This document shows, in pieces, positions 330 to 40,626 of a stretch of DNA of 64,000 nucleotides (its first letter is position 1; each line of letters starts with the position of its first letter). The position numbers and the translations under genes were made by a program. Source of the stretch: Escherichia coli (GTDB taxonomy: Bacteria > Pseudomonadota > Gammaproteobacteria > Enterobacterales > Enterobacteriaceae). The DNA is taken from assembly GCF_024223415.1 (NCBI RefSeq), contig NZ_CP100500.1, one strand, 5' to 3'. A model generated the notes under the pieces. The model searched no databases. It saw only the letters and a list, made by a program, of their open reading frames with translations, and was not told where the DNA came from.

Positions 330-655
330 AGACCTTCCGCTGGAAAGTGAAACCCGGTATGGATGTGGCTTCGGCCCCTTCCGTCAGGAAAGTGCGCTTT
401 GGTGATGGCTATTCCCAGCGAGCGCCTGCCGGGCTGAATGCCGACCTGAAAACGTACAGCGTGACGCTTTCTGTCCCCCGTGAGGAGGCCACGGCGCTGG
501 AGTCGTTTCTGGCTGAGCACGGGGGCTGGAAGGCCTTTCTGTGGACGCCGCCTTATGAGTGGCGGCAGATAAAGGTGACCTGCGCAAAATGGTCGTCGCG
601 GGTCAGTATGCTGCGTGTTGAGTTCAGCGCAGAGTTTGAACAGGTGGTGAACTGA
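326..655 (+). CDS. Minor tail protein M
   Basis: 109 aa, the same length as lambda M; start overlaps H stop; immediately precedes L. Confidence 0.88.
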   Translation: MKTFRWKVKPGMDVASAPSVRKVRFGDGYSQRAPAGLNADLKTYSVTLSVPREEATALESFLAEHGGWKAFLWTPPYEWRQIKVTCAKWSSRVSMLRVEFSAEFEQVVN

Positions 656-1353
656 TGCAGGATATCCGGCAGGAAACACTGAATGAATGCACCCGTGCGG
701 AGCAGTCGGCCAGCGTGGTGCTCTGGGAAATCGATCTGACAGAGGTCGGTGGCGAACGTTATTTTTTCTGTAATGAGCAGAACGAAAAAGGTGAGCCGGT
801 CACCTGGCAGGAGCGGCAGTATCAGCCGTATCCCATTCAGGGGAGTGGTTTTGAACTGAATGGCAAAGGCACCAGTACGCGCCCCACGCTGACGGTTTCT
901 AACCTGTACGGTATGGTCACCGGTATGGTGGAAGATATGCAGAGTCTGGTCGGCGGAACGGTGGTCCGGCGTAAAGTTTATGCCCGTTTTCTGGATGCGG
1001 TGAACTTCGTCAACGGAAACAGTGACGCCGATCCGGAGCAGGAGGTTATCAGCCGCTGGCGCATCGAGCAGTGCAGTGATTTGACAGCGGTCAGCGCGAC
1101 CTTTGTACTGGCCACGCCGACGGAAACGGACGGCGCTGTTTTTCCGGGACGTATTATGCTGGCCAACACCTGCACCTGGACCTATCGCGGTGACGAGTGC
1201 GGTTATAGCGGTCCGGCGGTCGCGGATGAATATGATCAGCCGACGTCCGATATCACGAAGGATAAATGCAGCAAATGCCTGAGCGGCTGTAAGTTTCGCA
1301 ATAACGTCGGCAACTTTGGCGGCTTCCTTTCCATTCACAAACTTTCGCAGTAA
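655..1353 (+). CDS. Minor tail protein L
   Basis: 232 aa as in lambda L; conserved Cys-rich C-terminus (CTWTYRGDECGY, CSKCLSGC); start overlaps M stop. Confidence 0.9.
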   Translation: MQDIRQETLNECTRAEQSASVVLWEIDLTEVGGERYFFCNEQNEKGEPVTWQERQYQPYPIQGSGFELNGKGTSTRPTLTVSNLYGMVTGMVEDMQSLVGGTVVRRKVYARFLDAVNFVNGNSDADPEQEVISRWRIEQCSDLTAVSATFVLATPTETDGAVFPGRIMLANTCTWTYRGDECGYSGPAVADEYDQPTSDITKDKCSKCLSGCKFRNNVGNFGGFLSIHKLSQ

Positions 1354-1357
1354 TTCC

Positions 1358-2101
1358 ATGACAGAGACAGAATCAGCGATTCTGGCGCACGCCCGGCGAT
1401 GTGCGCCAGCGGAGTCGTGCGGCTTCGTGGTGAGAGCGCCGGAGGGGGAAAGATATTTCCCCTGCGTGAATATCTCCGGTGAGCCGGAGGCGTATTTCCG
1501 GATGTCGCCGGAGGACTGGCTGCAGGCAGAGATGCAGGGTGAGATTGTGGCGCTGGTCCACAGTCACCCCGGTGGTCTGCCCTGGCTGAGTGAGGCCGAC
1601 CGGCGGCTGCAGGTGCAGAGTGATTTGCCGTGGTGGCTGGTCTGCCGGGGGGCGATTCACAAGTTCCGCTGTGTGCCGCATCTCACCGGGCGGTGCTTTG
1701 AGCACGGGGTGACGGACTGTTACACGCTGTTCCGGGATGCTTACCATCTGGCGGGAATTGAGATGCCGGATTTTCATCGCGGGGATGACTGGTGGCGTAA
1801 CGGTCAGAATCTCTATCTTGACAATATGGAGGCGACTGGTTTTTACCGTGTCGCACTGACAGAGGCGCAGCCCGGCGACGTGCTGCTGTGCTGTTTTGGT
1901 TCATCGGTGCCGAATCATGCCGCCATTTACTGCGGCGACGGCGGGCTGCTGCACCATATTCCTGAACAACTGAGCAAACGAGAGAGGTATACCGACAAAT
2001 GGCAGCGACGCACACACTCCCTCTGGCGTCACCGGGCATGGCACGCATCTGCCTTTACGGGGATTTGCAACGATTTGGCCGCCGCATCGACCTTCGTGTG
2101 A
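1358..2101 (+). CDS. Tail assembly protein K (MPN/JAB plus NlpC/P60-like)
   Basis: Frame open 1316-2101; ATG at 1358 lies 4 nt after the L stop (MTETESAILAHARR...); HSHP motif and Cys/His residues typical of the lambda K family. Start and exact length uncertain. Confidence 0.8.
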   Translation: MTETESAILAHARRCAPAESCGFVVRAPEGERYFPCVNISGEPEAYFRMSPEDWLQAEMQGEIVALVHSHPGGLPWLSEADRRLQVQSDLPWWLVCRGAIHKFRCVPHLTGRCFEHGVTDCYTLFRDAYHLAGIEMPDFHRGDDWWRNGQNLYLDNMEATGFYRVALTEAQPGDVLLCCFGSSVPNHAAIYCGDGGLLHHIPEQLSKRERYTDKWQRRTHSLWRHRAWHASAFTGICNDLAAASTFV

Positions 2102-2646
2102 AAACGGGAGCCGAAGCCATCCGGGCGCTGGCCACGCAGCTCCCTGCGTTTCGTCAGAAACTGAGCGACGGCTGGTATCAGGTGCGTATTGCCGGGCGTG
2201 ATACAGGCGAAAACGAATTATCAGCCCGTCTTAATGAACCGCTGGCAAATGGTGCCGTGATCCACATCGTGCCGCGTCTGGCGGGAGCCAAACGTGGTGG
2301 TGTGTTTCAGGCAGTGCTGGGCGCGGCGCTGATTGCGGTGGCATGGTGGAACCCTGCAGGCTGGCTGGGGGCTGCGGCTTTATCGGGCATGTATGCGGCA
2401 GGGGCCAGTATGGTGCTCGGTGGTGTGGCGCAGATGCTGGCACCGAAAGCCAGAATGCCCGGAGTATCAGCCACGGATAACGGCAAACAGAACACCTATT
2501 TCTCCTCACTGGAAAACATGGTTGCCCAGGGGAATGCTCTGCCCGTTCTGTACGGTGAAATGCGCGTGGGGTCACGGGTAATTTCGCAGGAGATCAGCAC
2601 AGCGGATGAGGGGGATGGCGTCCGGGTTGTGGTGATTGGTCGCTGA
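1999..2646 (+). CDS. Tail assembly protein I
   Basis: 215 aa; N-terminus MAATHTLPLASPGMARICLYGD and C-terminus matching the lambda I family; overlaps the K 3' end as in lambda. Confidence 0.85.
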   Translation: MAATHTLPLASPGMARICLYGDLQRFGRRIDLRVKTGAEAIRALATQLPAFRQKLSDGWYQVRIAGRDTGENELSARLNEPLANGAVIHIVPRLAGAKRGGVFQAVLGAALIAVAWWNPAGWLGAAALSGMYAAGASMVLGGVAQMLAPKARMPGVSATDNGKQNTYFSSLENMVAQGNALPVLYGEMRVGSRVISQEISTADEGDGVRVVVIGR

Positions 2647-2706
2647 TGAAAAACGTTTTATGTGAAACCGCCTCCGGGCGGTTTTGTCGTTTATGGAGCG
2701 TGAGGA

Positions 2707-5700
2707 ATGGGTAAAGGCAGCAGTAAGGGGCATACCCCGCGCGAAGCGAAGGACAACCTGAAGTCCACGCAGTTGCTGAGTGTGATCGATGTCATCAGCG
2801 AAGGGCCGATACAAGGACCGGTGGATGGATTAAAAAGCGTGCTGCTGAACGGTACGCCGGTGCTGGACAGTGAGGGGAATACCAATATATCCGGCGTCAC
2901 GGTGGTATTCCGGGCCGGTGAGCAGGAGCAGACGCCGCCGGAGGGATTTGAATCCTCCGGCTCCGAGACGGTGCTGGGTACGGAAGTGAAGTACGACACG
3001 CCGATTACCCGGACCATCACGTCGGCAAACATCGACCGTCTGCGCCTGACCTTCGGTGTGCAGGCACTGGTGGAAACCACCTCAAAGGGGGACCGGAATC
3101 CGTCGGAAGTCCGCCTGCTGGTTCAGATACAGCGTAACGGTCGCTGGTTAACGGAAAAAGACATCACCATTAAGGGAAAAACCACTTCACAGTATCTGGC
3201 TTCGGTGGTGGTGGATAACCTGCCGCCGCGCCCGTTCAGTATCCGGATGCGCAGGATGACACCGGACAGCACCACAGACCAGCTGCAGAACAAAACGCTC
3301 TGGTCGTCATACACCGAAATCATCGATGTGAAACAGTGCTACCCGAACACGGCACTGGTCGGTGTGCAGGTGGATTCGGAGGAGTTCGGCAGCCAGCAGG
3401 TGAGCCGTAATTATCATTTTCGCGGGCGCATTCTGCAGGTGCCGTCGAACTATAACCCGCAGACGCGGCAATACAGCGGTATCTGGGACGGAACGTTTAA
3501 ACCGGCATACAGCGATAACCCGGCCTGGTGTCTGTGGGATATGCTGACCCACCCGCGCTACGGCATGGGGAAACGTGTTGGCGCAGCGGATGTGGACAAA
3601 TGGGCGCTGTATGTCATCGGCCAGTACTGCGACCAGTCGGTGCCGGACGGCTCTGGTGGCACGGAGCCGCGCATCACCTGTAATGCCTGGCTGACCAGGC
3701 AGCGTAAGGCGTGGGATGTGCTCAGTGATTTCTGCTCGGCGATGCGCTGTATGCCGGTATGGAACGGGCAGACGCTGACGTTCGTGCAGGACCGACCGTC
3801 GGATAAGGTGTGGACCTATAACCGCAGTAATGTGGTGATGCCGGATGATGGCGCGCCGTTCCGCTACAGCTTCAGCGCCCTGAAGGACCGCCATAATGCC
3901 GTTGAGGTGAACTGGAGTGACCCGGATAACGGCCAGGAGACGGCGACAGAGCTTGTGGAGGACACGCAGGCCATTGCCCGTTACGGTCGTAACGTCACGA
4001 AGATGGATGCCTTTGGCTGTACCAGCCGGGGGCAGGCACACCGCGCCGGGCTGTGGCTGATTAAAACAGAACTGCTGGAGACGCAGACCGTGGATTTCAG
4101 CGTGGGTGCTGAAGGGCTTCGCCATGTACCGGGCGATGTCATTGAAATCTGTGATGATGACTATGCCGGTATCAGCACCGGTGGTCGTGTGCTGGCGGTG
4201 AACAGCCAGACCCGGACGCTGACGCTCGACCGTGAAATCACGCTGCCATCCTCCGGTACCACGCTGATAAGTCTGGTTGACGGAAGTGGCAATCCGGTCA
4301 GCGTGGAGGTTCAGTCCGTCACCGACGGCGTGAAGGTAAAAGTGAGCCGGGTTCCTGACGGCGTTGCCGAGTACAGCGTGTGGGGGCTGAAGCTGCCGAC
4401 GCTGCGCCAGCGCCTGTTCCGCTGCGTGAGTATCCGTGAGAACGACGACGGCACGTATGCCATCACTGCCGTGCAGCATGTACCGGAAAAAGAGGCCATC
4501 GTGGATAACGGGGCGCACTTTGACGGCGACCAGAGCGGAACGGTGAATGGTGTCACGCCGCCAGCGGTGCAGCACCTGACCGCAGAAGTCACCGCAGACA
4601 GCGGGGAATATCAGGTGCTGGCGCGCTGGGACACGCCGAAGGTGGTGAAGGGCGTGAGCTTCCTGCTTCGCCTGACCGTGGCCGCGGATGACGGCAGTGA
4701 GCGGCTGGTCAGCACGGCCCGGACGACGGAAACCACATACCGCTTCAGGCAGCTGGCGCCGGGGAACTACAGGCTGACAGTCCGGGCAGTAAATTCCCGG
4801 GGGCAGCAGGGAGACCCGGCGTCGGTATCGTTCCGGATTGCCGCACCGGCAGCGCCGTCGCGGATTGAGCTGACGCCGGGCTATTTTCAGATAACCGCCA
4901 CGCCGCATCTTGCCGTTTATGATCCGACGGTACAGTTTGAGTTCTGGTTTTCGGAAAAGCGGATTACCGATATCAGGCAGGTTGAAACCACAGCCCGTTA
5001 TCTTGGTACCGGAAGTCAGTGGCTTGTCTCCGGCCAGAATATTAAACCTGGCCATGATTATTACTTTTATATCCGCAGTGTTAACACTGTCGGTAAATCG
5101 GCATTCGTGGAGGCAGTCGGTCGGGCGAGTAATGATCCTGCCGGTTACCTTAATTTTTTCAGGGGGGCGATAAATAAAACGCATCTGGGACGGGAGATCA
5201 ATGAACGCATTGATGCCTCTGCACTGCGCACTGAAGTTGAGCAACTGGAGAATGAGATTAACCGCGAAATGACGCAGCTGGAGAAAGATGTGAGGCAGCG
5301 TGCGGAGCGTGATATCGCCGAGGTGACGAAAAAAATCACGGCGTCTGAAAACAGCATAACGGAACTGGTGGCGAAAAAGAGCGGTGAACAGTCGCTGGCC
5401 ATTGCGAAAGTCGACAGGAAAGTTGACAGCGTGAGCAGTGAAATCCGGCAGACAGTGAGCAGGAGCACGGAGGAGAACAGCCGACAGATAGCGCAGGTCA
5501 GGCAGTATGTTGATGATAAAAGTGCGCAAATAAGTACTGTTGTGGCGAAAAAGAGCGCTGAACAGTCAATGGCCATTGCGGAAGTTGACAGAAAAGTTGA
5601 CAGGATGGGAAGCGAAATCCGGCAGACAGTAAGCAGGAGCACGGAGGAGAACAGCCGACAGATAGCGCAGATCAGACAGTATGTTGATGATAAGGGAAGT

Positions 5701-6216
5701 CAGATCAAACAGAGCACGGATAAAAAACTGGGATCCTGGAATGCCAGCATTGAGCAGATACAGAAAGTTCAGGAGGACACGCGCCGGAACCTGAACAGCA
5801 TGTGGGCTGTGAAGCTGCAGCAGACACGGGATGGACGTCTCTATATTGCAGGTATTGGTGCCGGAATCGAAAATACGTCTGACGGAATTCAGAGTCAGAT
5901 CCTGATGCAGGCAGATCGTATTGCGATGATTAACCCGGAAAATGGCAATACAACACCTTTGTTTGTGGCTCAGGGTGATCAGCTGTTCATGAATGATGTT
6001 TTCATGAAAAAACTGACCGTGGATTTTGCCAGAGTGACGGGAGATATCCGGTCAGATAATTTTCATTCCGGTAGTCCGGGGTGGCGTTTATCAAGAAACG
6101 GCAGCCTTGAAATTAACTCAGGAAGGCCCGGCGCAGGCCGCCTGTTTTTCAATGGCGAGCGAATCGACGTATATGACGATAACAATGTGTTAAGAGTACG
6201 ACTGGGGAGACTGTAA
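2707..6216 (+). CDS. Host specificity / central tail fiber protein J, with divergent C-terminal part
   Basis: 1169 aa; SD GAGG before ATG 2707; conserved J blocks incl. [11 protein letters not shown] and [14 protein letters not shown]; long coiled-coil repeat region and short C-terminus that differ from lambda J as I remember it. Confidence 0.9.
5368..5715 (+). repeat. Tandem ~174-bp (58 aa) near-identical repeat inside the J coiled-coil region
   Basis: Peptide [51 protein letters not shown] repeated with few substitutions; visible at nucleotide level. Confidence 0.8.
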
Positions 6217-6476
6217 TGTTCGGAGTCCGGGTATGGCGCAAAGGGCGCCTTGTGACACATGAAATAAACCCAACAGGGGTGCTGGATGTGATCACTGAAG
6301 GGACGGGGCAGCGTTCTTATACTCCTTTGCAGGGCTGGCGTCTGGAAGTCTGTTCACCGGCCATTCTGATTAACGGTCAGGGAAGTCATACCAGTGCCAG
6401 TGTATCCGGCTGGACAGTGCACTATGCCAACACAAGCTGGCTAAGACCCGTGCTGGTCATGATAAGGGGGATCTGA
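6216..6476 (+). CDS. Hypothetical protein (86 aa), translationally coupled to J
   Basis: ATG overlaps J stop (TAATG); no signal peptide; no motif I recognise. Confidence 0.45.
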   Translation: MFGVRVWRKGRLVTHEINPTGVLDVITEGTGQRSYTPLQGWRLEVCSPAILINGQGSHTSASVSGWTVHYANTSWLRPVLVMIRGI

Positions 6477-7138
6477 TGTTTGCACTTAAATTAACTGATG
6501 AGCGGGGGAGAGAATGGATATCACCTGTTGCGCCGCCACTGAACCTTGTGCGCCGTTTTCATTTCACACTGAGTGCGCGTGATGCGGTGATGCAGTTTAT
6601 CGACACCGGGGTGCCGACGAATTATCGTTGCGTGATTTTTATTAAACAGATAAGCGGTAATCAGTCCTTCCATGGTGAAATGGTTCAGCTTAACGGTACC
6701 TGGCAGTATGACATTTTCAGCGCTGGTACAGGGCAGGAGCCGGGCATGGAACAGGACAGCACATATGTTGTTTATGTTTTTGCCAACATGGTGAATGTAT
6801 GGCCGCAATGGGGAATACAGTTGTGCGACAGTCATGGCAGGGTGGTCTGGAACACGGAAATGCTGCCACTGGAAGTAAAAATGACGCGAATATGGGAAAA
6901 GGATGTACCGATCAGTGTGGGACATGATGTGGCCGTAATGCCGGGGTGTACCCAGTGGACGACAGTTCAGGAAGGGGAGAGTTATTACTGGTATACCGCC
7001 AGTTTTAATGCCAGAAACTCACAGTTATGGCGTCAGTCAACTTTTGCTGAAGATAACGTAGCGGCGCCCAATGATAATTCAGGTGTTGTTAATAACCTCT
7101 GTTATTACATAAATGCAGAAATTTATGATGCGTACTGA
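6476..7138 (+). CDS. Hypothetical protein (220 aa), coupled to the preceding ORF; possible tail-tip or receptor-recognition accessory
   Basis: ATG overlaps upstream stop (TGATG); Trp/Tyr-rich sequence; no signal peptide; sits where lambda has lom. Confidence 0.5.
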   Translation: MFALKLTDERGREWISPVAPPLNLVRRFHFTLSARDAVMQFIDTGVPTNYRCVIFIKQISGNQSFHGEMVQLNGTWQYDIFSAGTGQEPGMEQDSTYVVYVFANMVNVWPQWGIQLCDSHGRVVWNTEMLPLEVKMTRIWEKDVPISVGHDVAVMPGCTQWTTVQEGESYYWYTASFNARNSQLWRQSTFAEDNVAAPNDNSGVVNNLCYYINAEIYDAY

Positions 7139-7159
7139 TAGTTATGTTGAGGGCATGTA

Positions 7160-7405
7160 ATGAAAATAATCGTCTGCACTTTTTTGCTGTTTCTTGTATC
7201 AGGTTGCGCGGGGTACCGTTCAGTTACGGAGAGAGTCCGGTGCACCGGTGTGCTGAGTCCCGGGGTTTTACAGCGAGCTTATACGGTAGATCTTACAGGG
7301 AAAATAGAAACGAAAAGCGGCACTGTGTATAAAGTATCAGCTCCGAGATTTTATGGTCAGTGGGTGAGTGAAGATATGTTTACGAAAGTTTCGTGCGTGA
7401 AGTAA
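7160..7405 (+). CDS. Small lipoprotein (81 aa), possibly Cor-like superinfection exclusion protein
   Basis: Signal peptide with lipobox LVSGC; own SD (GAGG) and downstream terminator; size and post-J position resemble cor of FhuA-dependent lambdoid phages (from memory, not sequence-verified). Confidence 0.45.
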   Translation: MKIIVCTFLLFLVSGCAGYRSVTERVRCTGVLSPGVLQRAYTVDLTGKIETKSGTVYKVSAPRFYGQWVSEDMFTKVSCVK

Positions 7406-7440
7406 TCATAAAAACACCCGATTGTAAATGAATGACGACG

Positions 7441-7466
7441 CCCGCAATTTTGCGGGATTATTTTTT
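7441..7466 (+). terminator. Rho-independent terminator after the lipoprotein gene
   Basis: Hairpin cccgcaattttgcggg followed by a T-run. Confidence 0.55.
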
Positions 7467-7477
7467 ATGGAGCGAGT

Positions 7478-9292
7478 ATGGCGGCTGTAAAAATTTCAGG
7501 CGTGCTGAGGGACGGAACCGGAAAACCGGTACCGGGATGCATTATTGAGCTGAAAGCGAAGAGAACCAGCGAGACAGTCATCGCCACGACAGTGGCTTAT
7601 GGCATGCCGGAAGAGACGGGGAGTTACAGTATGGATGTGGAGCCAGGAATATACAGGGTGACACTCAATACAGAAGGTTACCGTCCTTCGTATGTGGGAG
7701 ATATCGTGGTCAGGGAGGATTCTTCACCGGGAACACTGAATAAATTTCTGATGGAGATGGAAGATGCTCCTTATTATCCGAAGGCGTTGTCAGAGCTGGA
7801 GGCTGTGGTGCAGTCCATACTGCACAGAGCAGAGTCCGCGGCATCTGAGGCGGAGGAAGCCCGGAAACGAGCAGCATCTGCCCGGGGACCACGAGGAGAG
7901 AAAGGGGATACCGGCGCTCGTGGTGAAAGAGGCATTACCGGGCCACAGGGGCCAAAAGGTGAAACAGGAGCACGTGGCCCGGCAGGACCACAGGGACCAA
8001 AAGGTGAAACAGGTGAACGCGGTCCGGCAGGTCCACAGGGACTAAAGGGCGATACAGGTGAACGCGGCCCGGCAGGTCCACAGGGACCAAAGGGTGAAAC
8101 AGGTGCACGCGGCCCGGCAGGTCCACAGGGAGCAAAGGGCGAAACAGGTGAACGCGGCCCGGCAGGTCCACAGGGAGCAAAGGGCGAAACAGGTGCACGT
8201 GGTCCGGAAGGCCCTCAGGGTCTGAAGGGAGAAAAGGGTGAGCGAGGAGAAAAAGGCCCTAAGGGGGATAAAGGAGATCCGGGAGGTCCACAGGGACCAA
8301 AGGGGGATACAGGTGAACGCGGCCCGGCAGGTCCACAGGGATCAAAGGGCGATACAGGTGAACGTGGCCCGGCAGGTCCTCAGGGACCAAAGGGGGATAC
8401 AGGTGAACGTGGCCCGGAAGGTCCACAGGGAGCAAAGGGTGAAACAGGTGAACGCGGCCCGGCAGGACCACAGGGACCAAAAGGTGAAACAGGTGAACGC
8501 GGTCCGACAGGTCCACAGGGAGCAAAAGGTGAAACAGGAGCACGCGGTCCGGCAGGTCCTCAGGGACCAAGAGGAGAGTCAGCCCGTGGACAACTGCTGA
8601 ATGGTGATCTGAACCGACTGGGACGAGTGACCGATCAGGGTGATTATTATCAGCCATCAGACAGTGGGGCTACACGAGAAAATAATTATCCGATTCAGAG
8701 AGCGGGTTATCTTCAGGTAAGAGTTGGTGCATGGGGATATTGCCAGCATGAATATACAACCTGGAACCCACCACGAAAGTTCGTAAGAACTGTTACTGGT
8801 AATTTTACCGGTAATGGCCCCTGGTCTGAATGGAAAGAGCTGGGAGCCCAGGGGGAGCGTGGTCCACAGGGACCAAAAGGTGAAACAGGTGCACGCGGTC
8901 CGGCAGGTCCACAGGGACTAAAGGGCGAAACAGGTGCACGTGGCCTGGCAGGTCCTCGGGGGCCAAGAGGGTATACAGGTGAACGCGGCCCGGCAGGTCC
9001 ACAGGGGCCAAGAGGAGAAGCGGGGCGGCCAGCGAGCGTCGGAAGTGTTTATTCCGTGGGGTCTTATGTTCTGGGGATCATAGAACGAAATCATGAGATA
9101 ACAAATACCCGTCAAATACCCGGGTATCGTATCAGACAGGCCGTTATTGTGTCGTCGTCATCGGATAAACTTACAGATATCCGCTTTTTATTTGGCAATC
9201 CTATGCTTGGTACATGGATGTTATGCACAACTAACATGACGGTGAATAATATCAGTGGGACGATTTGGGGCCTGTTTCAGAGAATACTGTGA
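7478..9292 (+). CDS. Side tail fiber protein (Stf-like) with collagen-like Gly-X-Y repeats
   Basis: N-terminus [29 protein letters not shown] close to the lambda Stf N-terminus; about 240 aa of GPxGxxGxxG repeats plus a second shorter block. Confidence 0.85.
7853..8580 (+). repeat. Collagen-like Gly-X-Y triplet repeat array within stf (second block about 8828-9010)
   Basis: Repeated 9-nt and 27-nt units encoding G-P-Q-G-x-K-G-E-T; also produces spurious antisense ORFs. Confidence 0.85.
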
Positions 9293-9307
9293 CAGGGGGA
9301 GAAATGA

Positions 9308-9883
9308 ATGAAGGTCGATAAAATCACGTCACCAGTGTGGGCTGACAGGGGTCATACGACCATAAACTGTATAGTGAAGTTTTCAGACGCGGAAACAGAA
9401 TGTGTATTTACAGCAAGTGCGGATGATCCTGAGTCTTACGGTCGTGAAATATTTGAAGCCTGCATAAGAGGTGATGCAGGGCCGGTAGGTGAGTACCGGG
9501 CAAATGATGATATGGCTGTGGAAGAAGCACGCAGGATGAAAAACGCGGAGATAAATGCCTGGCGTGATGCGATGGAGGCGTCAGGGTATGTTTTTGAGCA
9601 CAGAGGACGGAAATGGGATTATGGAAAGGAAACCATGACACGTCTTGGAATGTCGGCATCAGCGGCCAGAGGCGGTGTGTTGCCGGAAGGATTTTTCTGG
9701 ACGGACGCAGAGAATAATGATGTACCGATGACGGCAGATGAACTGATATCCCTGAGTGATGCTGCTGGTAAAGCGATGTTCAGGAAAGGCCTTGAAATAC
9801 ATATAAGGCAAAGGGAGATGAAAAAGGCAATAGCAGAACTGAGTGACAGTGAAACCATTCTGGCGTACAGGGTTGGATGGTGA
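9308..9883 (+). CDS. Tail fiber assembly protein (Tfa-like chaperone)
   Basis: 191 aa directly after stf, with the size and position typical of lambdoid tfa; assignment is positional plus general family resemblance. Confidence 0.6.
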   Translation: MKVDKITSPVWADRGHTTINCIVKFSDAETECVFTASADDPESYGREIFEACIRGDAGPVGEYRANDDMAVEEARRMKNAEINAWRDAMEASGYVFEHRGRKWDYGKETMTRLGMSASAARGGVLPEGFFWTDAENNDVPMTADELISLSDAAGKAMFRKGLEIHIRQREMKKAIAELSDSETILAYRVGW

Positions 9884-9896
9884 AACTGATAAAAAA

Positions 9897-9925
9897 ACCC
9901 CTCTGAAAATTCTGTCAGAGGGGTG
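9897..9925. terminator. Stem-loop after tfa (A-tract upstream, weak U-tract downstream; may act bidirectionally)
   Basis: cccctctga-aaattc-tgtcagagggg inverted repeat. Confidence 0.4.
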
Positions 9926-10321
9926 TAGTCAATAAGGGAATAATATTCAACATGAAGATGTCTTCTGGGAATGTTTACATAGCAAATGCTTTCACTCCGG
10001 TAATTAATTTCTGTGATTAACTGCTTTCGATCAATAAAGGAATTGCAAAAAAGGTGAACTGATTCACAATTGAGTCTGTGATGAATGTAGACTGATGTAG
10101 GAAACGGTTATTCTGACAGCTATATCTGAATGCTCTGCTGACATATGGGGACAAGAACGCTCATATTGTTTTATCGGGGTGCATTTATCCTATAATTCCA
10201 TGTTAACTGTATTGATTGTTAAAATCAATGCAGTGGTGACTCTGAAAGGTATCCTGGAAAAGAATCTCGCCTGCTTATTCAGGGGGGGTTACAGTTTAAT
10301 CTTCTTAACAGGATATACCAT

Positions 10322-29919: not shown

Positions 29920-32900
29920 ATGACTCCAGTAAAAGTGTGGCAAGAGCGCGTTGAGATCCCGACCTATGAAACCGGGCCGCAGGATATACATCCCATGTTC
30001 CTGGAAAATCGCGTTTATCAGGGATCGTCCGGCGCGGTTTATCCCTACGGCGTGACCGATACGCTGAGCGAGCAGAAAACCCTGAAATCCTGGCAGGCGG
30101 TGTGGCTGGAAAACGACTACATCAAAGTGATGATCCTGCCGGAATTGGGCGGTCGGGTGCATCGCGCATGGGATAAAGTGAAACAACGCGATTTTGTCTA
30201 TCACAATGAAGTCATTAAACCTGCGCTGGTGGGGCTGCTGGGACCGTGGATCTCTGGCGGGATTGAGTTTAACTGGCCGCAACACCATCGCCCGACCACC
30301 TTTATGCCCGTTGATTTCACCCTCGAAGCCCATGAAGACGGTGCACAGACGGTGTGGGTCGGCGAAACGGAGCCGATGCATGGTTTACAGGTGATGACAG
30401 GTTTCACCCTGCGCCCTGACCGGGCGGCGCTGGAAATCGCCAGCCGCGTCTATAACGGCAACGCCACACCGCGTCATTTCTTGTGGTGGGCCAACCCGGC
30501 AGTGAAAGGGGGTGAAGGGCATCAGAGCGTTTTCCCGCCGGATGTGACTGCGGTGTTTGATCACGGCAAACGGGCCGTCTCCGCTTTCCCCATCGCCACC
30601 GGCACTTACTACAAAGTGGACTACTCCGCTGGAGTGGACATTTCTCGCTATAAAAATGTGCCTGTTCCAACCTCATATATGGCCGAAAAATCGCAGTACG
30701 ATTTTGTCGGCGCGTGGTGTCACGATGAAGATGGTGGTTTGCTGCACGTTGCCAACCACCATATTGCGCCAGGTAAAAAACAGTGGAGTTGGGGACACAG
30801 TGAATTTGGCCAGGCGTGGGATAAGAGTCTGACCGACAATAACGGCCCGTATATCGAACTGATGACCGGTATTTTTGCCGATAACCAGCCTGATTTTACC
30901 TGGCTTGATGCTTACGAAGAGAAGCGTTTCGAGCAGTATTTCCTGCCTTATCATTCTCTGGGCATGGTGCAAAATGCCTCCCGCGATGCGGTGATAAAAC
31001 TCCAGCGTAGTGAGCGGGGGATTGAGTGGGGGCTGTATGCCATCTCTCCGTTGAACGGATACCGCCTGGCGATCCGCGAAATCGGCAAATGCAACGCGTT
31101 ACTTGATGATGCCGTGGCACTGATGCCTGCGACCGCCATCCAGGGCGTGTTGCACGGTATCAATCCTGAAAGGCTGACCATTGAGCTCTCCGATGCCGAC
31201 GGCAATATTGTACTGAGTTATCAGGAACATCAGCCGCAAGAGTTGCCGTTGCCGGACGTCGCCAAAGCGCCACTGGCAGCACAAGACATTACCAGTACAG
31301 ATGAAGCCTGGTTTATCGGTCAGCATCTGGAGCAATATCATCACGCCAGCCGTTCACCGTTCGATTACTACCTGCGCGGCGTGGCGCTGGATCCGCTGGA
31401 TTACCGCTGTAACCTGGCGCTGGCGATGCTGGAGTATAACCGCGCAGATTTCCCGCAAGCGGTGGCGTATGCCACTCAGGCTCTGAAACGCGCACATGCG
31501 CTGAACAAAAATCCGCAGTGCGGACAGGCGAGTTTGATTCGCGCCAGTGCTTACGAACGTCAGGGACAATATCAACAAGCCGAAGAGGATTTCTGGCGTG
31601 CGGTCTGGAGCGGCAACAGTAAAGCCGGAGGCTATTATGGTCTGGCACGACTGGCGGCGCGTAATGGTAACTTCGACGCGGGTCTGGATTTTTGCCAACA
31701 AAGTCTTCGCGCCTGCCCAACCAATCAGGAAGTGCTTTGCCTGCATAATCTGCTGCTGGTGTTAAGTGGTCGTCAGGACAACGCGCGTTTGCAGCGCGAG
31801 AAACTGCTGCGCGATTATCCGCTGAACGCCACTCTGTGGTGGCTGAACTGGTTCGATGGTCGTAGCGAATCAGCTCTCGCGCAGTGGCGCGGTCTGTGTC
31901 AGGGACGCGACGTTAACGCCCTGATGACCGCCGGGCAACTGATTAACTGGGGAATGCCCACCCTGGCGGCAGAGATGCTGAACGCACTGGACTGCCAGCG
32001 CACGCTGCCGCTTTACCTGCAAGCCAGCTTGCTGCCGAAAGCCGAACGTGGCGAACTGGTCGCAAAAGCCATTGATCTCTTCCCGCAGTTTGTCCGTTTC
32101 CCGAATACGCTGGAAGACGTGGCGGCGCTGGAGAGTATTGAAGAGTGCTGGTTTGCTCGCCATTTACTGGCCTGCTTCTACTACAACAAACGTAGCTACA
32201 ACAAAGCCATTGCCTTATGGCAACGTTGCGTAGAGATGTCGCCGGAGTTTGCCGACGGCTGGCGCGGGTTAGCGATCCATGCGTGGAATAAGCAACACGA
32301 TTATGAGCTGGCCGCGCGTTATCTTGATAATGCTTATCAGCTTGCGCCACAGGATGCACGTCTGCTTTTCGAACGGGATTTACTGGATAAGTTAAGCGGA
32401 GCCGCACCGGAGAAACGACTGGCGCGTCTGGAAAATAATCTGGAAATTGCCCTGAAACGTGACGACATGACCGCAGAATTAATTAATTTGTGGCATCTCA
32501 CCGGTCAGGCAGACAAAGCGGCGGACATTCTCGCCACGCGCAAATTCCACCCGTGGGAAGGCGGGGAAGGGAAGGTCACCAGTCAGTTTATCCTCAACCA
32601 GTTATTACGCGCCTGGCAGCATCTTGATGCCAGACAGCCGCAGCAGGCCAGCGAACTGCTTCATGACGCGCTGCATTATCCGGAGAATTTAAGCGAAGGC
32701 CGTTTACCGGGGCAAACTGATAACGACATCTGGTTCTGGCAGGCGATATGTGCCAACGCGCAGGGCGATCAAACTGAAGCGACGCGTTGTTTACGTCTGG
32801 CGGCGACCGGCGATCGCACTATTAACATTCACAGTTATTACAACGATCAGCCGGTTGATTATCTCTTCTGGCAAGGAATGGCGCTGCGACTGCTGGGCGA

Positions 32901-33201
32901 ACAACAAATCGCACAGCAACTGTTTAGTGAAATGAAACAGTGGGCGCAAGAGATGGCGAAAACCAGTATTGAGGCAGATTTCTTTGCCGTCTCGCAACCT
33001 GACTTGTTGTCGCTGTATGGCGATTTACAACAGCAGCATAAAGAAAAATGCCTGATGGTGGCGATGCTGGCGTCCGCGGGACTCGGGGAGGTTGCGCAAT
33101 ATGAGTCTGCTCGCGCTGAATTGACGGCGATTAATCCGGCCTGGCCGAAAGCGGCATTATTCACCACTGTGATGCCTTTTATTTTTAACTACGTTCACTA
33201 A
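29920..33201 (+). CDS. yphG: Large TPR-repeat protein YphG
   Basis: 1093 aa from MTPVKVWQERVEI (SD GAGGG upstream); ORF frame opens at 29827; synteny. Confidence 0.8.
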   Translation: MTPVKVWQERVEIPTYETGPQDIHPMFLENRVYQGSSGAVYPYGVTDTLSEQKTLKSWQAVWLENDYIKVMILPELGGRVHRAWDKVKQRDFVYHNEVIKPALVGLLGPWISGGIEFNWPQHHRPTTFMPVDFTLEAHEDGAQTVWVGETEPMHGLQVMTGFTLRPDRAALEIASRVYNGNATPRHFLWWANPAVKGGEGHQSVFPPDVTAVFDHGKRAVSAFPIATGTYYKVDYSAGVDISRYKNVPVPTSYMAEKSQYDFVGAWCHDEDGGLLHVANHHIAPGKKQWSWGHSEFGQAWDKSLTDNNGPYIELMTGIFADNQPDFTWLDAYEEKRFEQYFLPYHSLGMVQNASRDAVIKLQRSERGIEWGLYAISPLNGYRLAIREIGKCNALLDDAVALMPATAIQGVLHGINPERLTIELSDADGNIVLSYQEHQPQELPLPDVAKAPLAAQDITSTDEAWFIGQHLEQYHHASRSPFDYYLRGVALDPLDYRCNLALAMLEYNRADFPQAVAYATQALKRAHALNKNPQCGQASLIRASAYERQGQYQQAEEDFWRAVWSGNSKAGGYYGLARLAARNGNFDAGLDFCQQSLRACPTNQEVLCLHNLLLVLSGRQDNARLQREKLLRDYPLNATLWWLNWFDGRSESALAQWRGLCQGRDVNALMTAGQLINWGMPTLAAEMLNALDCQRTLPLYLQASLLPKAERGELVAKAIDLFPQFVRFPNTLEDVAALESIEECWFARHLLACFYYNKRSYNKAIALWQRCVEMSPEFADGWRGLAIHAWNKQHDYELAARYLDNAYQLAPQDARLLFERDLLDKLSGAAPEKRLARLENNLEIALKRDDMTAELINLWHLTGQADKAADILATRKFHPWEGGEGKVTSQFILNQLLRAWQHLDARQPQQASELLHDALHYPENLSEGRLPGQTDNDIWFWQAICANAQGDQTEATRCLRLAATGDRTINIHSYYNDQPVDYLFWQGMALRLLGEQQIAQQLFSEMKQWAQEMAKTSIEADFFAVSQPDLLSLYGDLQQQHKEKCLMVAMLASAGLGEVAQYESARAELTAINPAWPKAALFTTVMPFIFNYVH

Positions 33202-33297
33202 ACCCTATTAACTGTAATATTTGAGCGGCACGCGCTGCCGCTCATCACAAAATAATTAGAATAAGCCGTTGTTAATAAAAACCCTACAGGAGGCTCT

Positions 33298-34281
33298 ATG
33301 CCTAAAAAAATGAGAACAACCCGTAATCTATTATTAATGGCTACGCTATTAGGTAGCGCACTATTTGCCAGGGCTGCGGATAAAGAAATGACCATTGGCG
33401 CAATATACCTTGATACTCAGGGATATTACGCTGGAGTGCGTCAGGGCGTTCAGGATGCGGCAAAAGATTCTTCAGTACAGGTACAGTTAATTGAAACTAA
33501 CGCCCAGGGTGATATTTCGAAAGAAAGTACCTTTGTTGATACCCTCGTGGCGCGTAATGTCGATGCTATTATTTTATCGGCAGTGTCTGAAAATGGCAGT
33601 AGCCGTACCGTTCGTCGCGCCAGTGAAGCGGGTATTCCGGTGATTTGCTACAACACCTGTATTAATCAAAAGGGTGTCGATAAATATGTCTCGGCATATC
33701 TGGTGGGTGACCCGCTGGAATTTGGTAAAAAACTGGGTAACGCTGCCGCCGATTATTTTATTGCCAACAAAATTGACCAGCCGAAAATTGCCGTCATCAA
33801 TTGCGAAGCCTTTGAAGTTTGTGTGCAACGACGTAAAGGGTTTGAAGAAGTATTAAAAGCCCGCGTTCCCGGCGCGCAAATTGTCGCTAATCAGGAAGGG
33901 ACTGTTTTAGATAAAGCGATTTCCGTTGGTGAAAAACTGATTATCTCCACGCCGGATCTCAACGCCATTATGGGGGAATCGGGCGGTGCGACACTCGGCG
34001 CGGTAAAAGCGGTACGTAATCAAAATCAGGCCGGAAAAATTGCTGTTTTCGGTTCGGATATGACAACCGAAATTGCTCAGGAGCTGGAAAACAATCAGGT
34101 GCTGAAAGCGGTAGTGGATATTTCCGGTAAGAAAATGGGCAATGCTGTTTTCGCGCAAACATTGAAGGTTATCAATAAACAAGCCGACGGTGAAAAAGTG
34201 ATTCAGGTGCCTATCGATCTCTATACCAAAACGGAAGACGGTAAACAGTGGCTGGCAACGCACGTTGATGGTCTGCCCTAA
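33298..34281 (+). CDS. yphF: ABC sugar transporter periplasmic binding protein
   Basis: 327 aa with signal peptide; LacI/ribose-binding-like periplasmic protein; first gene of yphFED. Confidence 0.85.
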   Translation: MPKKMRTTRNLLLMATLLGSALFARAADKEMTIGAIYLDTQGYYAGVRQGVQDAAKDSSVQVQLIETNAQGDISKESTFVDTLVARNVDAIILSAVSENGSSRTVRRASEAGIPVICYNTCINQKGVDKYVSAYLVGDPLEFGKKLGNAAADYFIANKIDQPKIAVINCEAFEVCVQRRKGFEEVLKARVPGAQIVANQEGTVLDKAISVGEKLIISTPDLNAIMGESGGATLGAVKAVRNQNQAGKIAVFGSDMTTEIAQELENNQVLKAVVDISGKKMGNAVFAQTLKVINKQADGEKVIQVPIDLYTKTEDGKQWLATHVDGLP

Positions 34282-34303
34282 TCGCTGATTCGCAGAGGTC
34301 CCT

Positions 34304-35815
34304 ATGTTCACTGCAACAGAGGCAGTCCCGGTAGCAAAAGTGGTGGCAGGAAATAAGCGTTATCCCGGCGTCGTTGCGTTGGATAACGTTAACTTCACGC
34401 TCAATAAAGGCGAGGTTCGTGCGCTGTTAGGCAAAAACGGCGCGGGCAAATCGACCCTCATTCGAATGCTTACCGGCAGTGAACGTCCGGATAGCGGTGA
34501 AATCTGGATTGGCGAGACGCGACTGGAAGGTGACGAAGCTACGCTGACTCGCCGTGCCGCTGAACTGGGGGTACGCGCGGTTTATCAGGAGTTAAGTCTG
34601 GTGGAAGGGCTGACGGTGGCGGAAAACCTCTGCCTCGGTCAGTGGCCCCGCCGCAACGGCATGATTGATTACCTGCAAATGGCGCAGGATGCCCAACGTT
34701 GCTTACAGGCGCTGGGCGTTGACGTTAGTCCTGAACAACTTGTTTCAACGCTAAGCCCGGCGCATAAGCAGCTGGTGGAAATTGCGCGGGTGATGAAAGG
34801 CGAGCCGCGCGTGGTCATTCTTGATGAACCTACCAGTTCGCTTGCCAGTGCGGAAGTTGAACTGGTGATCAGCGCGGTGAAAAAGATGTCGGCACTGGGT
34901 GTGGCGGTGATTTATGTCAGCCACCGGATGGAAGAAATTCGCCGCATTGCCTCCTGTGCCACCGTTATGCGCGATGGTCAGGTGGCGGGCGATGTGATGC
35001 TCGAAAACACTTCCACGCATCATATTGTGTCGCTAATGCTAGGGCGCGATCACGTTGATATTGCGCCGGTTGCCCCTCAGGAAATTGTGGATCAGGCCGT
35101 GCTGGAAGTCCGTGCGTTACGCCATAAGCCCAAGCTGGAGGATATCAGCTTTACGCTACGTCGTGGCGAAGTGCTTGGCATTGCTGGCCTGCTGGGGGCA
35201 GGGCGCAGTGAATTGCTGAAAGCGATTGTTGGGCTGGAGACGTATGAACAGGGCGAAATTGTTATCAACGGCGAGAAAATCATGCGCCCCGATTACGGCG
35301 ACATGCTGAAACGCGGCATTGGCTATACGCCAGAAAACCGCAAAGAAGCGGGGATCATTCCCTGGCTGGGCGTTGACGAAAATACAGTGCTGACCAATCG
35401 GCAAAAAATCAGCGCCAACGGTGTGCTGCAATGGTCCACCATCCGCCGCCTGACCGAAGAGGTGATGCAGCGGATGACGGTCAAGGCCGCCAGTAGCGAA
35501 ACACCCATCGGCACGCTTTCTGGCGGCAATCAGCAAAAAGTGGTGATCGGTCGTTGGGTCTATGCCGCCAGCCAGATTTTGTTGCTCGACGAGCCAACGC
35601 GCGGCGTCGATATCGAAGCCAAACAGCAGATTTACCGTATTGTCCGTGAGCTGGCTGCCGAAGGAAAAAGCGTGGTGTTTATCTCCAGTGAAGTGGAGGA
35701 GTTACCGCTGGTGTGCGACCGCATTCTGTTGTTACAGCACGGTACGTTCTCGCAGGAGTTTCACGCTCCGGTCAATGTGGATGAGCTGATGTCCGCCATT
35801 CTGTCTGTGCACTGA
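34304..35815 (+). CDS. yphE: ABC sugar transporter ATP-binding protein (tandem ABC domains)
   Basis: 503 aa; Walker A GKNGAGKST; two ABC signature regions. Confidence 0.9.
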   Translation: MFTATEAVPVAKVVAGNKRYPGVVALDNVNFTLNKGEVRALLGKNGAGKSTLIRMLTGSERPDSGEIWIGETRLEGDEATLTRRAAELGVRAVYQELSLVEGLTVAENLCLGQWPRRNGMIDYLQMAQDAQRCLQALGVDVSPEQLVSTLSPAHKQLVEIARVMKGEPRVVILDEPTSSLASAEVELVISAVKKMSALGVAVIYVSHRMEEIRRIASCATVMRDGQVAGDVMLENTSTHHIVSLMLGRDHVDIAPVAPQEIVDQAVLEVRALRHKPKLEDISFTLRRGEVLGIAGLLGAGRSELLKAIVGLETYEQGEIVINGEKIMRPDYGDMLKRGIGYTPENRKEAGIIPWLGVDENTVLTNRQKISANGVLQWSTIRRLTEEVMQRMTVKAASSETPIGTLSGGNQQKVVIGRWVYAASQILLLDEPTRGVDIEAKQQIYRIVRELAAEGKSVVFISSEVEELPLVCDRILLLQHGTFSQEFHAPVNVDELMSAILSVH

Positions 35816-35839
35816 TGAATTTTACCGAGGAACCTGAAG

Positions 35840-36838
35840 ATGTCTGCTTCGTCATTACCATTGCCGCAGGGCAAGAGCGTCTCGCTCAAACAATTTGTCA
35901 GTCGCTATATTAATGAGATCGGTTTGCTGGTGGTGATTGCCATTCTTTATCTGGTCTTCTCCCTGAACGCGCCTGGCTTTATCTCATTGAATAACCAGAT
36001 GAACGTGCTGCGCGATGCCGCCACCATTGGGATTGCCGCCTGGGCGATGACGCTGATTATTATCTCCGGTGAAATTGATGTCAGCGTTGGGCCGATGGTG
36101 GCTTTTGTCTCGGTGTGCCTGGCATTTTTGCTGCAATTTGAAGTTCCGTTGGCGATTGCTTGTCTGCTGGTGTTGCTGTTAGGCGCGCTGATGGGAACGC
36201 TCGCCGGGGTGCTGCGTGGCGTGTTTAACGTGCCAAGTTTCGTGGCCACGCTGGGGCTGTGGAGCGCCCTGCGCGGAATGGGCTTGTTTATGACCAACGC
36301 CCTGCCAGTGCCGATTGACGAAAACGAGGTGCTGGACTGGCTGGGCGGACAATTTCTCGGTGTGCCGGTATCCGCGCTGATCATGATGGTGCTGTTTGCG
36401 CTGTTTGTGTTCATTAGCCGAAAAACCGCCTTCGGGCGCTCGGTTTTTGCCGTTGGCGGTAATGCCACGGCGGCGCAGTTGTGCGGTATTAACGTTCGTC
36501 GGGTACGCATTCTTATCTTTACCCTTTCGGGATTATTAGCGGCGGTGACCGGCATTTTGTTGGCGGCGCGCCTCGGTTCCGGTAACGCAGGTGCCGCAAA
36601 CGGTCTGGAGTTTGACGTCATCGCCGCGGTCGTGGTCGGCGGTACGGCGCTTTCCGGTGGTCGCGGCTCGTTGTTCGGTACGCTGCTTGGCGTACTGGTG
36701 ATTACGCTAATCGGTAACGGTCTGGTGCTGCTCGGGATTAACTCCTTTTTCCAGCAGGTGGTGCGCGGCGTCATCATCGTGGTGGCGGTGCTGGCGAATA
36801 TCTTGCTGACCCAGCGTAGCAGTAAAGCGAAACGCTAA
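35840..36838 (+). CDS. yphD: ABC sugar transporter permease
   Basis: 332 aa polytopic membrane protein; RbsC-like. Confidence 0.88.
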   Translation: MSASSLPLPQGKSVSLKQFVSRYINEIGLLVVIAILYLVFSLNAPGFISLNNQMNVLRDAATIGIAAWAMTLIIISGEIDVSVGPMVAFVSVCLAFLLQFEVPLAIACLLVLLLGALMGTLAGVLRGVFNVPSFVATLGLWSALRGMGLFMTNALPVPIDENEVLDWLGGQFLGVPVSALIMMVLFALFVFISRKTAFGRSVFAVGGNATAAQLCGINVRRVRILIFTLSGLLAAVTGILLAARLGSGNAGAANGLEFDVIAAVVVGGTALSGGRGSLFGTLLGVLVITLIGNGLVLLGINSFFQQVVRGVIIVVAVLANILLTQRSSKAKR

Positions 36839-36903
36839 ACCTTAACGCCCCTGGCGCGGGTGCGGCAGGGATGAAAATTAATCGTATTGTTAATGAGGGA
36901 TTT

Positions 36904-37965
36904 ATGAAAACGATGCTGGCAGCTTATTTACCAGGAAATTCGACCGTCGATCTGCGGGAAGTTGCAGTGCCGACGCCGGGGATTAACCAGGTACTGATCA
37001 AAATGAAATCCTCCGGAATTTGCGGAAGCGATGTCCACTATATCTACCACCAGCACCGCGCTACGGCGGCGGCACCCGATAAACCGTTGTACCAGGGATT
37101 TATCAACGGTCATGAACCGTGCGGGCAGATTGTGGCGATGGGGCAAGGCTGCCGCCATTTTAAAGAGGGCGACCGCGTGCTGGTGTATCACATTTCTGGC
37201 TGTGGTTTTTGCCCGAACTGCCGTCGCGGTTTTCCTATTTCTTGTACTGGCGAAGGAAAAGCGGCTTACGGCTGGCAGCGTGACGGCGGTCATGCCGAAT
37301 ACTTGCTGGCGGAAGAAAAAGATCTGATCCTCCTGCCGGATGCGCTGAGCTACGAAGATGGTGCGTTTATCAGTTGCGGCGTTGGCACGGCCTATGAAGG
37401 GATTTTGCGCGGCGAAGTTTCCGGCAGTGATAACGTGCTGGTGGTCGGTCTGGGGCCAGTCGGCATGATGGCGATGATGCTGGCGAAAGGTCGCGGTGCA
37501 AAACGGATTATCGGCGTTGATATGCTGCCGGAACGTCTGGCGATGGCAAAACAGTTAGGAGTGATGGATCACGGCTATTTAGCGACCACTGAAGGTCTGC
37601 CGCAGATAATCGCCGAACTCACTCACGGCGGCGCGGATGTTGCGCTTGATTGTTCCGGTAATGCCGCAGGTCGCTTACTGGCACTGCAATCCACCGCTGA
37701 CTGGGGGCGGGTGGTTTACATTGGTGAAACCGGAAAAGTGGAATTCGAGGTCAGCGCCGATCTGATGCACCATCAACGGCGGATTATTGGCTCCTGGGTG
37801 ACCAGTCTGTTCCATATGGAAAAATGCGCCCACGATTTGACTGACTGGAAGCTGTGGCCGCGTAACGCCATTACCCATCGCTTCTCGCTGGAACAGGCAG
37901 GTGATGCCTATGCGCTGATGGCGAGCGGCAAATGCGGGAAAGTTGTGATTAACTTCCCGGATTAA
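36904..37965 (+). CDS. yphC: Zinc-dependent alcohol dehydrogenase-family oxidoreductase
   Basis: 353 aa from MKTMLAAY; GHE zinc-binding motif and Rossmann GLGPVG. Confidence 0.88.
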   Translation: MKTMLAAYLPGNSTVDLREVAVPTPGINQVLIKMKSSGICGSDVHYIYHQHRATAAAPDKPLYQGFINGHEPCGQIVAMGQGCRHFKEGDRVLVYHISGCGFCPNCRRGFPISCTGEGKAAYGWQRDGGHAEYLLAEEKDLILLPDALSYEDGAFISCGVGTAYEGILRGEVSGSDNVLVVGLGPVGMMAMMLAKGRGAKRIIGVDMLPERLAMAKQLGVMDHGYLATTEGLPQIIAELTHGGADVALDCSGNAAGRLLALQSTADWGRVVYIGETGKVEFEVSADLMHHQRRIIGSWVTSLFHMEKCAHDLTDWKLWPRNAITHRFSLEQAGDAYALMASGKCGKVVINFPD

Positions 37966-37976
37966 GGAGTTAGCGG

Positions 37977-38848
37977 ATGACCATCTATACCTTATCCCAC
38001 GGGTCGCTAAAGCTGGGCGTTTCTGACCAGGGCGGCGTAATCGAAGGCTTCTGGCGCGATACGACGCCGCTCTTACGTCCTGGTAAAAAAGCGGTGTGGC
38101 AACCGATGCCTCTTGTTTTCCGCTGGTGCCGTTTGCAAACCGGGTGAGCGGCAACCGTTTTGTCTGGCAGGGGCGTGAGTATCAACTGCAACCGAATGTT
38201 GAGTGGGATGCGCACTATCTACACGGCGATGGCTGGCTGGGCGAGTGGCAATGTGTCTCGTGCAGCGATGATAGTTTGTGTCTGGTGTATGAACATCGCA
38301 GCGGTGTCTATCACTATCGGGTAAGTCAGGCGTTTCATTTAACGGCGGATACGCTGACGGTGACGCTCTCTGTCACCAATCAAGGGGCAGAGACGCTGCC
38401 ATTTGGTACCGGCTGGCATCCTTATTTTCCGTTGTCGCCGCAAACGCGGATTCAGGCACAGGCGAGCGGTTACTGGCTGGAGCGGGAGCAGTGGCTGGCG
38501 GGTGAGTTTTGCGAGCAGCTACCGCAAGAATTGGATTTTAACCAGCTCGCGCCGTTGCCGCGCCAGTGGGTGAACAATGGTTTTGCCGGATGGAATGGTC
38601 AGGCCCGCATCGAGCAGCCGCAGGAGGGTTATGCCATCATCATAGAAACGACGCCACCTGCACCGTGTTATTTCATCTTTGTTTCCGACCCGGCGTTTGA
38701 TAAAGGATATGCGTTTGATTTCTTCTGTCTGGAGCCGATGAGCCATGCGCCGGATGACCATCATCGCCCGGAAGGGGGGGACCTCATTGCGCTTGCGCCG
38801 GGGGAATCAACAACCTCAGAGATGTCGTTGCGGGTAGAGTGGCTGTAA
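37977..38848 (+). pseudogene. yphB: Aldose 1-epimerase-family gene yphB, apparently frameshifted at a poly-A tract
   Basis: ATG 37977 with SD AAGGAG encodes MTIYTLSHGS...LRPGKK and stops at 38149-38151; remainder of the protein continues in the +2 frame from 38087 to 38848; the frames meet at the A6 run 38085-38090. Confidence 0.55.
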
Positions 38849-38858
38849 TTTATAAAAT

Positions 38859-38890
38859 GCCGGATAAGGCGTTCACGCCGCATCCGGCAT
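38859..38890. repeat. REP (repetitive extragenic palindromic) element
   Basis: tgccggataaggcgttcacgccgcatccggca. Confidence 0.75.
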
Positions 38891-38895
38891 CTTTC

Positions 38896-39318
38896 CTAAC
38901 GGCGATCGAGAGAAATTGCCCCCGGCCCGGTAATTGCCAATAGCAAGAACGCGCCAGCGATGCTGATATTCTTCCAGAAATTAATCATATTTGGCCCAAC
39001 CGCATCGCCGGTCATATCCCAGTAATGGTGACCAATCACCGCCGTACCCAGCGTGTAGAAAATAAACAGTACCGCCAGCGGACGGGTGAAAAAGCCAAGC
39101 ACGATTAATATCGCGGCGGGCACTTCCATAACTACCGCAATAATCGCTGCCAGCATCGGCATCGGTGCGCCCAGCGAGGCCATATATTGGACCGTACCGT
39201 CAAAGCCCATCATTTTGGGAAAACCAAAAATAATGAAAATTAGGACCACGGCGATACGGGCAATTAATAACAAAACGGGGCGGGCAGCACCAAAATCAAA
39301 ATAACGTAGTGAGTTCAT
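38896..39318 (-). CDS. yphA: DoxX-family inner membrane protein
   Basis: 140 aa from [14 protein letters not shown]; multiple TM helices. Confidence 0.85.

Positions 39319-39414: not shown

Positions 39415-40626
<1,212 letters not shown>

Follow-up and report, generated by a model that had tools for sequence, protein, structure and literature searches.

Strand slippage in mononucleotide runs is a standard source of 1-bp insertions and deletions. In the E. coli strain PK5 (NZ_CP074024.1; pig, Cuba), yphB (KFU66_RS06055) is annotated by PGAP as a pseudogene with the label 'frameshifted'. Both this type of event and the yphB allele with a tract of six A residues instead of seven (A6 and A7, respectively) are thus already on record, and nothing in them is new in the present case. 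The intact gene product is represented in PDB by 3NRE, the E. coli K-12 YphB (b2544), which is a putative aldose 1-epimerase. A paper on a sulfoquinovose mutarotase (PMC5902678) cites the structure 3NRE as E. coli YphB, and this pointer was the sole yield of our literature search, in which no functional study of yphB was found.

Here, we analyzed a 64,000-nt stretch of the E. coli contig NZ_CP100500.1, called the window below, in which yphB carries A6. With one A inserted in the tract, the gene encodes a protein of exactly 290 aa, which the initial annotation had estimated at about 290 aa. This protein is identical to YphB of KV7 (WP_000158558.1), and the same accession is annotated for YphB also in SCU-316 and GPEC1446. 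It shares 286 of its 290 residues with the 3NRE chain (E = 9e-206), a resemblance far beyond chance, and the four substitutions are G14/D, C96/H, L194/P and I223/M in the window/3NRE order.

The Pfam profile Aldose_epim (PF01263) matches the repaired protein with 182 bits (cut-off 27) at residues 3–285, from profile position 2 to 298 of 299. The domain thus takes up the entire protein, of which the frameshift splits off the first sixth. The naming of the gene as yphB of the aldose 1-epimerase family, made at first from the letters, is borne out by the identity to 3NRE, by this match over the whole domain and by the neighborhood. The sequence identity and the same flanking genes together establish its orthology to YphB.

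The upstream genes yphG, yphF, yphE, yphD and yphC (29920–37965, plus strand) are all intact and codirectional with yphB, according to the ORFs and the RefSeq annotation of collinear relatives. Their products are, in this order, a DUF5107 protein, a periplasmic binding protein, an ABC ATPase, a permease and a Zn-dependent dehydrogenase. On the 3′ side, yphA of the DoxX family (38896–39318, minus strand), located by mapping the relatives' annotation on the window and by the ORF list, is convergent with yphB and is followed by hcaD. No gene follows yphB in its direction and the neighbor beyond it is convergent, so the frameshift should have no polar effect.

Three other elements lie at or near yphB. 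An antisense ORF of 159 aa (37675–38154) was considered to arise from the coding sequences of yphC and yphB and was set aside. A terminator-like match at 38127–38153 falls within the coding sequence, and matches of this kind are as frequent as shuffles predict. Just 3′ of yphB, the palindrome GCCGGATAAGGCGTTCACGCCGCATCCGGCA at 38859–38889 is presumably REP-like, and the Logan contigs of several samples all break there, with ends at window positions 38886 and 38863.

The Shine-Dalgarno sequence of yphB, AAGGAG at 37964–37969 (plus strand), is 7 nt before the ATG at 37977 and overlaps the yphC stop TAA (37963–37965), the yphC ORF ending at 37965. Both the Shine-Dalgarno sequence and the ATG are read in the sequence as the initial annotation had them. 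The A6 homopolymer at 38085–38090 (plus strand) is the site of the 1-bp deletion, where the window reads GGT AAA AAA GCG. All near relatives read A7 there, GGT AAA AAA AGC (G-K-K-S), in the alignments to SCU-316, KV7 and GPEC1446 and in a census of the A run over all fetched loci. The segment 37960–38100 of the window reads gattAAGGAGttagcggATGacc ... cgtcctggtAAAAAAgcggtgtgg.

The frame opened by the ATG (37977–38147, plus strand) is truncated to 56 codons and a TGA, with the native residues 1–38, MTIYTLSHGSLKLGVSDQGGVIEGFWRDTTPLLRPGKK, followed by 18 out-of-frame residues. The 56-aa product consists of MTIYTLSHGS...LRPGKK and the out-of-frame tail AVWQPMPLVFRWCRLQTG. Its premature stop is the TGA at 38145–38147, and the earlier placement of the stop at 38149–38151 was a small coordinate slip, the sole error in the initial annotation.

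The rest of yphB, codons 39–290 and the TAA, is at 38090–38848 (plus strand) and now in the +2 frame relative to the ATG. This frame is open from just past the TAA at 38082–38084 to the TAA at 38846–38848, and reads KSGVATDASCFPLVPFANRVSGNRF...VEWL. The two frames join in the A6 run at 38085–38090. The junction and the continuation in the +2 frame to 38848 are both found where they had been described.

In the GTGA at 38144–38147 (plus strand), the GTG of the downstream frame (38144–38146) overlaps the premature TGA. The GTG may be a candidate re-initiation point, conceivably giving a 234-aa product without the N-terminal 56 residues, which include the PFANR motif. Gene calls on A6 contigs start the downstream fragment at the GTG, for example at 10168–10872 (234 aa) on contig L009 described below.

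The downstream frame keeps the motifs HGDGW, GWHPYF and CLEPM, which we putatively take to hold the catalytic residues of GalM-type enzymes. The 250-aa ORF from the GTG at 38096 matches Aldose_epim with 165.6 bits over profile positions 51–298 of 299, and the 56-aa product alone gives no Pfam match. The stop after 56 codons separates profile positions 2–50 from the rest. As it stands, yphB of the window is a family member by descent and a pseudogene.

The 1001-bp region 37900–38900 that contains the whole gene matches 5,425 of the 5,426 complete RefSeq E. coli genomes. The six best ones, SCU-316, O78 strain 3, GPEC1446, NCTC10444, NCTC9112 and KV7, all read A7 and all annotate an intact 873-nt yphB. 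One gap is their sole difference from the window over the 1001 bp, so the lesion is very young if real. This 1-bp gap against all six nearest genomes makes the gene a frameshifted pseudogene in the PGAP sense.

Window 13082–64000 (about 51 kb) was compared base by base with SCU-316, KV7 and GPEC1446, with 7–13 SNPs found per alignment piece of 20–41 kb. The yphB A is the only 1-bp indel against KV7, GPEC1446 and SCU-316, and the other gaps are a 13-bp difference in a repeat at 21175 and a 3-bp difference private to SCU-316. This part of the window has 137, 45 and 8 homopolymers of 5, 6 and 7 nt, respectively (190 of at least 5 nt), and only the yphB run is discordant. With only one 1-bp indel among the 190 homopolymers, the window assembly is not error-laden.

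At 21175, in the intergenic region after purL, the missing 13 bp are TCACGCCGCATCC, which we take to be REP-like. They are present in SCU-316, KV7, GPEC1446 and GCA_018050105.1, and their absence from the window may reflect a true loss or a collapsed repeat.

Window 1–13081 is the right end of a lambdoid prophage, which is absent at the site in the nearest complete genomes, and the junction is at about 13081/13082. The prophage genes are those of gpJ (2707–6216), a collagen-repeat tail fibre (7478–9292), a DUF4376 protein (9308–9883), a 469-aa protein with a YadA-type membrane anchor (10322–11731), a sigma-70 region-4 HTH protein (11792–12247) and DinI (12631–12879, minus strand). We presume that the 469-aa protein is possibly Eib-like. 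In the ferredoxin gene yfhL, the insertion falls after codon 16, and the remainder of yfhL is outside the window.

Two nonsynonymous SNPs, at 32118 (yphG) and 41826 (hcaF), mark the lineage and are absent from the nearest complete genomes. The window YphG has Asp733 and its relatives have Glu. Relatives of the lineage were reached by exact-protein look-ups with the YphG (D733) and HcaF alleles, which are on only 11 and only 17 public contigs, respectively. The HcaF allele is also on divergent contigs, so is not exclusive to the lineage.

The initial annotation had proposed a comparison with isolates of the same lineage, and three sequences with the marker SNPs, GCA_018050105.1, SRR36098277 and ERR3437215, turned out to carry A7. 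For the ERR3437215 contig (L016), from a near-identical clone-mate, the yphB A is the single difference from the window in 15,677 nt, so the change is recent.

The window isolate has a marker of its own, a private C at 40358 (hcaD, minus strand; T in all relatives) that makes HcaD D87G and is common only to the contigs of SRR19977205 and SRR19977217. An exact-protein look-up of HcaD D87G gave no match, though the identical DNA is present in contig L021 of SRR19977205, and the index is incomplete. In another ERR3437215 contig (L022), a C to T change at the equivalent of window 44425 splits hcaR into 219-aa and 76-aa products. The near-identical isolates each have a different private gene disruption, in yphB for the window and in hcaR for ERR3437215.

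The initial annotation left open whether yphB is a genuine pseudogene, phase-variable or misread. The first option is the most likely, as the relatives have A7 and the clean read-set contigs A6, and we judge the frameshift to be quite probably genuine, a very recently arisen pseudogene. An exact-protein look-up found the exact 56-aa frameshift product called on 8 public contigs, three of them from NCBI assemblies (L006–L008, described below). Of the two SRR19977205 Logan contigs, L009 matches the window at 100% over 10,910 nt with A6 included, and L021 does so for another 9,412 nt that contain the private 40358C. Together (20.3 kb), they have the lineage SNPs, agree with the relatives at all other 85 homopolymers of at least 5 nt and are correct at T5 36444 and G7 38774, where noisy data sets systematically err.

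SRR19977217, a noisy sister run of the same clone, has three extra homopolymer deletions in 16.7 kb, so its A6 carries little weight. At the error density of this run, zero other errors in 20.3 kb would have a chance of about 0.026. By these contigs, SRR19977205 appears to be the window isolate or a clone-mate, sequenced with accurate reads that assemble to A6. It is probably the data behind the window's own genome assembly, and so shows A6 in the reads, not A6 in biology. No paper on SRR19977205, SRR19977217 or ERR3437215 came up in a full-text literature search.

A smaller yet real possibility, which we regard as unlikely, is that the isolate has A7 and an intact yphB and that the consensus dropped one A in the homopolymer. 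The change from A7 to A6 at exactly this tract is a common artefact in error-laden long-read assemblies, and A7 is read both in the clone-mate ERR3437215 and in every near relative. For instance, GCA_020556205, GCA_020555935 and GCA_020556185 (L006–L008) have A6 plus 16–21 other gap openings and many miscalls at CCWGG sites in 20 kb, and are without the window's lineage SNPs. These three are long-read assemblies without correction, their A6 being an artefact. However frequent this undercall is, the yphB run is the window's lone 1-bp indel across about 51 kb, and A6 also comes out of the independent k-mer assembly of SRR19977205, which makes no mistake at any other homopolymer of the 20.3 kb.

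The frameshift peptide belongs to a 19-member cluster in a collection of 15 billion proteins, and the 15 members listed are all distinct with the same junction of PGKK to AVWQP. Hence, the A7-to-A6 frameshift peptide exists in at least 15 sequence backgrounds. The cluster is dominated by contigs with shredded neighboring genes, which adds to the case for an artefact. One variant of the peptide is on 476 contigs, and the long contigs inspected (10 of 10) have shredded neighbors, so are artefacts. Another variant is on 124 contigs, and most of the 8 inspected have shredded neighbors, while two contigs of this variant, from ERR152031 and SRR26800110, have all neighbors intact. The accession number of ERR152031 presumably dates it before nanopore sequencing.

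Most long A6 contigs have many broken genes, and their errors at homopolymers and CCWGG sites are those expected of nanopore data without correction. The Logan contigs of ERR11030147 and ERR4563783 also combine A6 with other homopolymer deletions. The yphB A7 tract is thus a genuine site of recurrent slippage and, at the same time, notorious for undercalls.

Other sites behave similarly in the noisy data. Positions 36444 (T5, yphD), 38774–38780 (G7, yphB) and 28566 (A6) are undercalled repeatedly in L006–L008, L010 and L011, and the window is correct at them. A spurious split of yphD (232 + 97 aa) recurs across the noisy data sets.

The A6 allele was counted in the complete genomes by a 34-nt query, for which every 28-nt seed must include T-A6-G. 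The A6 34-mer is in 1 of the 5,426 genomes, that of PK5, and this count is a lower bound, as the query misses genomes with extra SNPs within 38067–38094. Identity bands of a 96-nt query were rejected for the count because they are ambiguous, 96/97 rounding to 99.0%, and the lone match of at least 99% seems partial. PK5 differs from the window by 272 SNPs and zero gaps over 12 kb (97.7% identity), so its A6 is an independent event in a clean assembly and not shared by ancestry.

It is very improbable that the A tract is a reversible ON/OFF switch, or that A6 gives full-length YphB via −1 ribosomal slippage on AAA AAA or via transcriptional slippage. The clone-mates are indeed polymorphic, with A6 in the window and A7 in ERR3437215, and A6 recurs in unrelated clean genomes. 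However, phase variation is unsupported, since the tract of 6–7 nt is short for a contingency locus, only one change is seen between the clone-mates and the OFF allele is rare and not maintained, with the A6 34-mer in a single complete genome.

As to recoding, by the sequence, G-K-K-S-G-V would be recovered exactly if tRNA-Lys slipped by −1 on the second AAA. Nevertheless, the ORF has a codon start at 38085, which puts the dnaX-type heptamer A AAA AAG (38085–38091) out of phase. The downstream RNA shows no excess of structure over its shuffles (z = −0.94), the upstream sequence contains no Shine-Dalgarno-like stimulator, and the homologues encode one continuous frame. Thus, phase, stimulator and conservation are all against a programmed −1 frameshift site, and any full-length rescue from A6 would be low-level noise.

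We would likewise hardly expect the A7 tract to be a recurrent ON/OFF site hit independently in the window isolate, PK5 and ERR152031, or A6 to still yield some YphB by −1 slippage. If such an ON/OFF site were true, clones could lose the mutarotase step of the uncharacterised yph sugar pathway and perhaps recover it.

For the favored reading of a genuine and recent deletion, we propose that replication slippage would have dropped one A from the A7 tract at codons 37–39 of yphB within a clone. Translation from the normal start would then exit the native frame after Lys38 and stop 18 codons on to yield the 56-aa peptide. The remaining 252 codons, intact and out of frame, would constitute a young pseudogene.

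A mutarotase without its N-terminal strands is unlikely to fold, and the loss of the N-terminal sixth of the Aldose_epim protein would probably abolish or cripple the activity. Mutarotase loss is usually mild, and anomers interconvert spontaneously. The cost to the isolate would be small and near-neutral, because yphB is the last gene in yphGFEDCB, the next gene is convergent and the sugars also mutarotate spontaneously.

The biological weight of the lesion is small, as it is probably the fresh loss, in one isolate, of an accessory enzyme encoded at the end of an uncharacterised sugar-uptake cluster. A broken yphB is nonetheless a practical flag that an assembly may be unpolished, and short-read support is needed before it is interpreted as lineage-specific gene loss.

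In comparison with the K-12 YphB of 3NRE, the repaired window protein is likewise a whole Aldose_epim domain of 290 aa. Its gene context, with yphGFEDC on the 5′ side and convergent yphA and hcaD on the 3′ side, agrees with the RefSeq annotation of the E. coli genomes examined. Unlike the gene of the 3NRE protein, the window yphB has A6 instead of A7 and cannot produce the full protein. The locus resembles a dnaX-type −1 site in its A run followed by G and in the −1 shift needed to reach the downstream frame, but differs in that its heptamer is out of phase, the downstream structure is not significant and the two-frame layout is not conserved.

The uncorrected long-read assemblies (L006–L008 and L027–L036) share the identical A6 allele and the identical 56-aa product with the window. 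They have many further homopolymer and CCWGG-site errors in the same 12–20 kb, whereas the window and the SRR19977205 contigs have none. The yphB of PK5 went from A7 to A6 at the identical site, matches the window exactly over 34 nt across the tract and has intact neighbors, but its background is unrelated.
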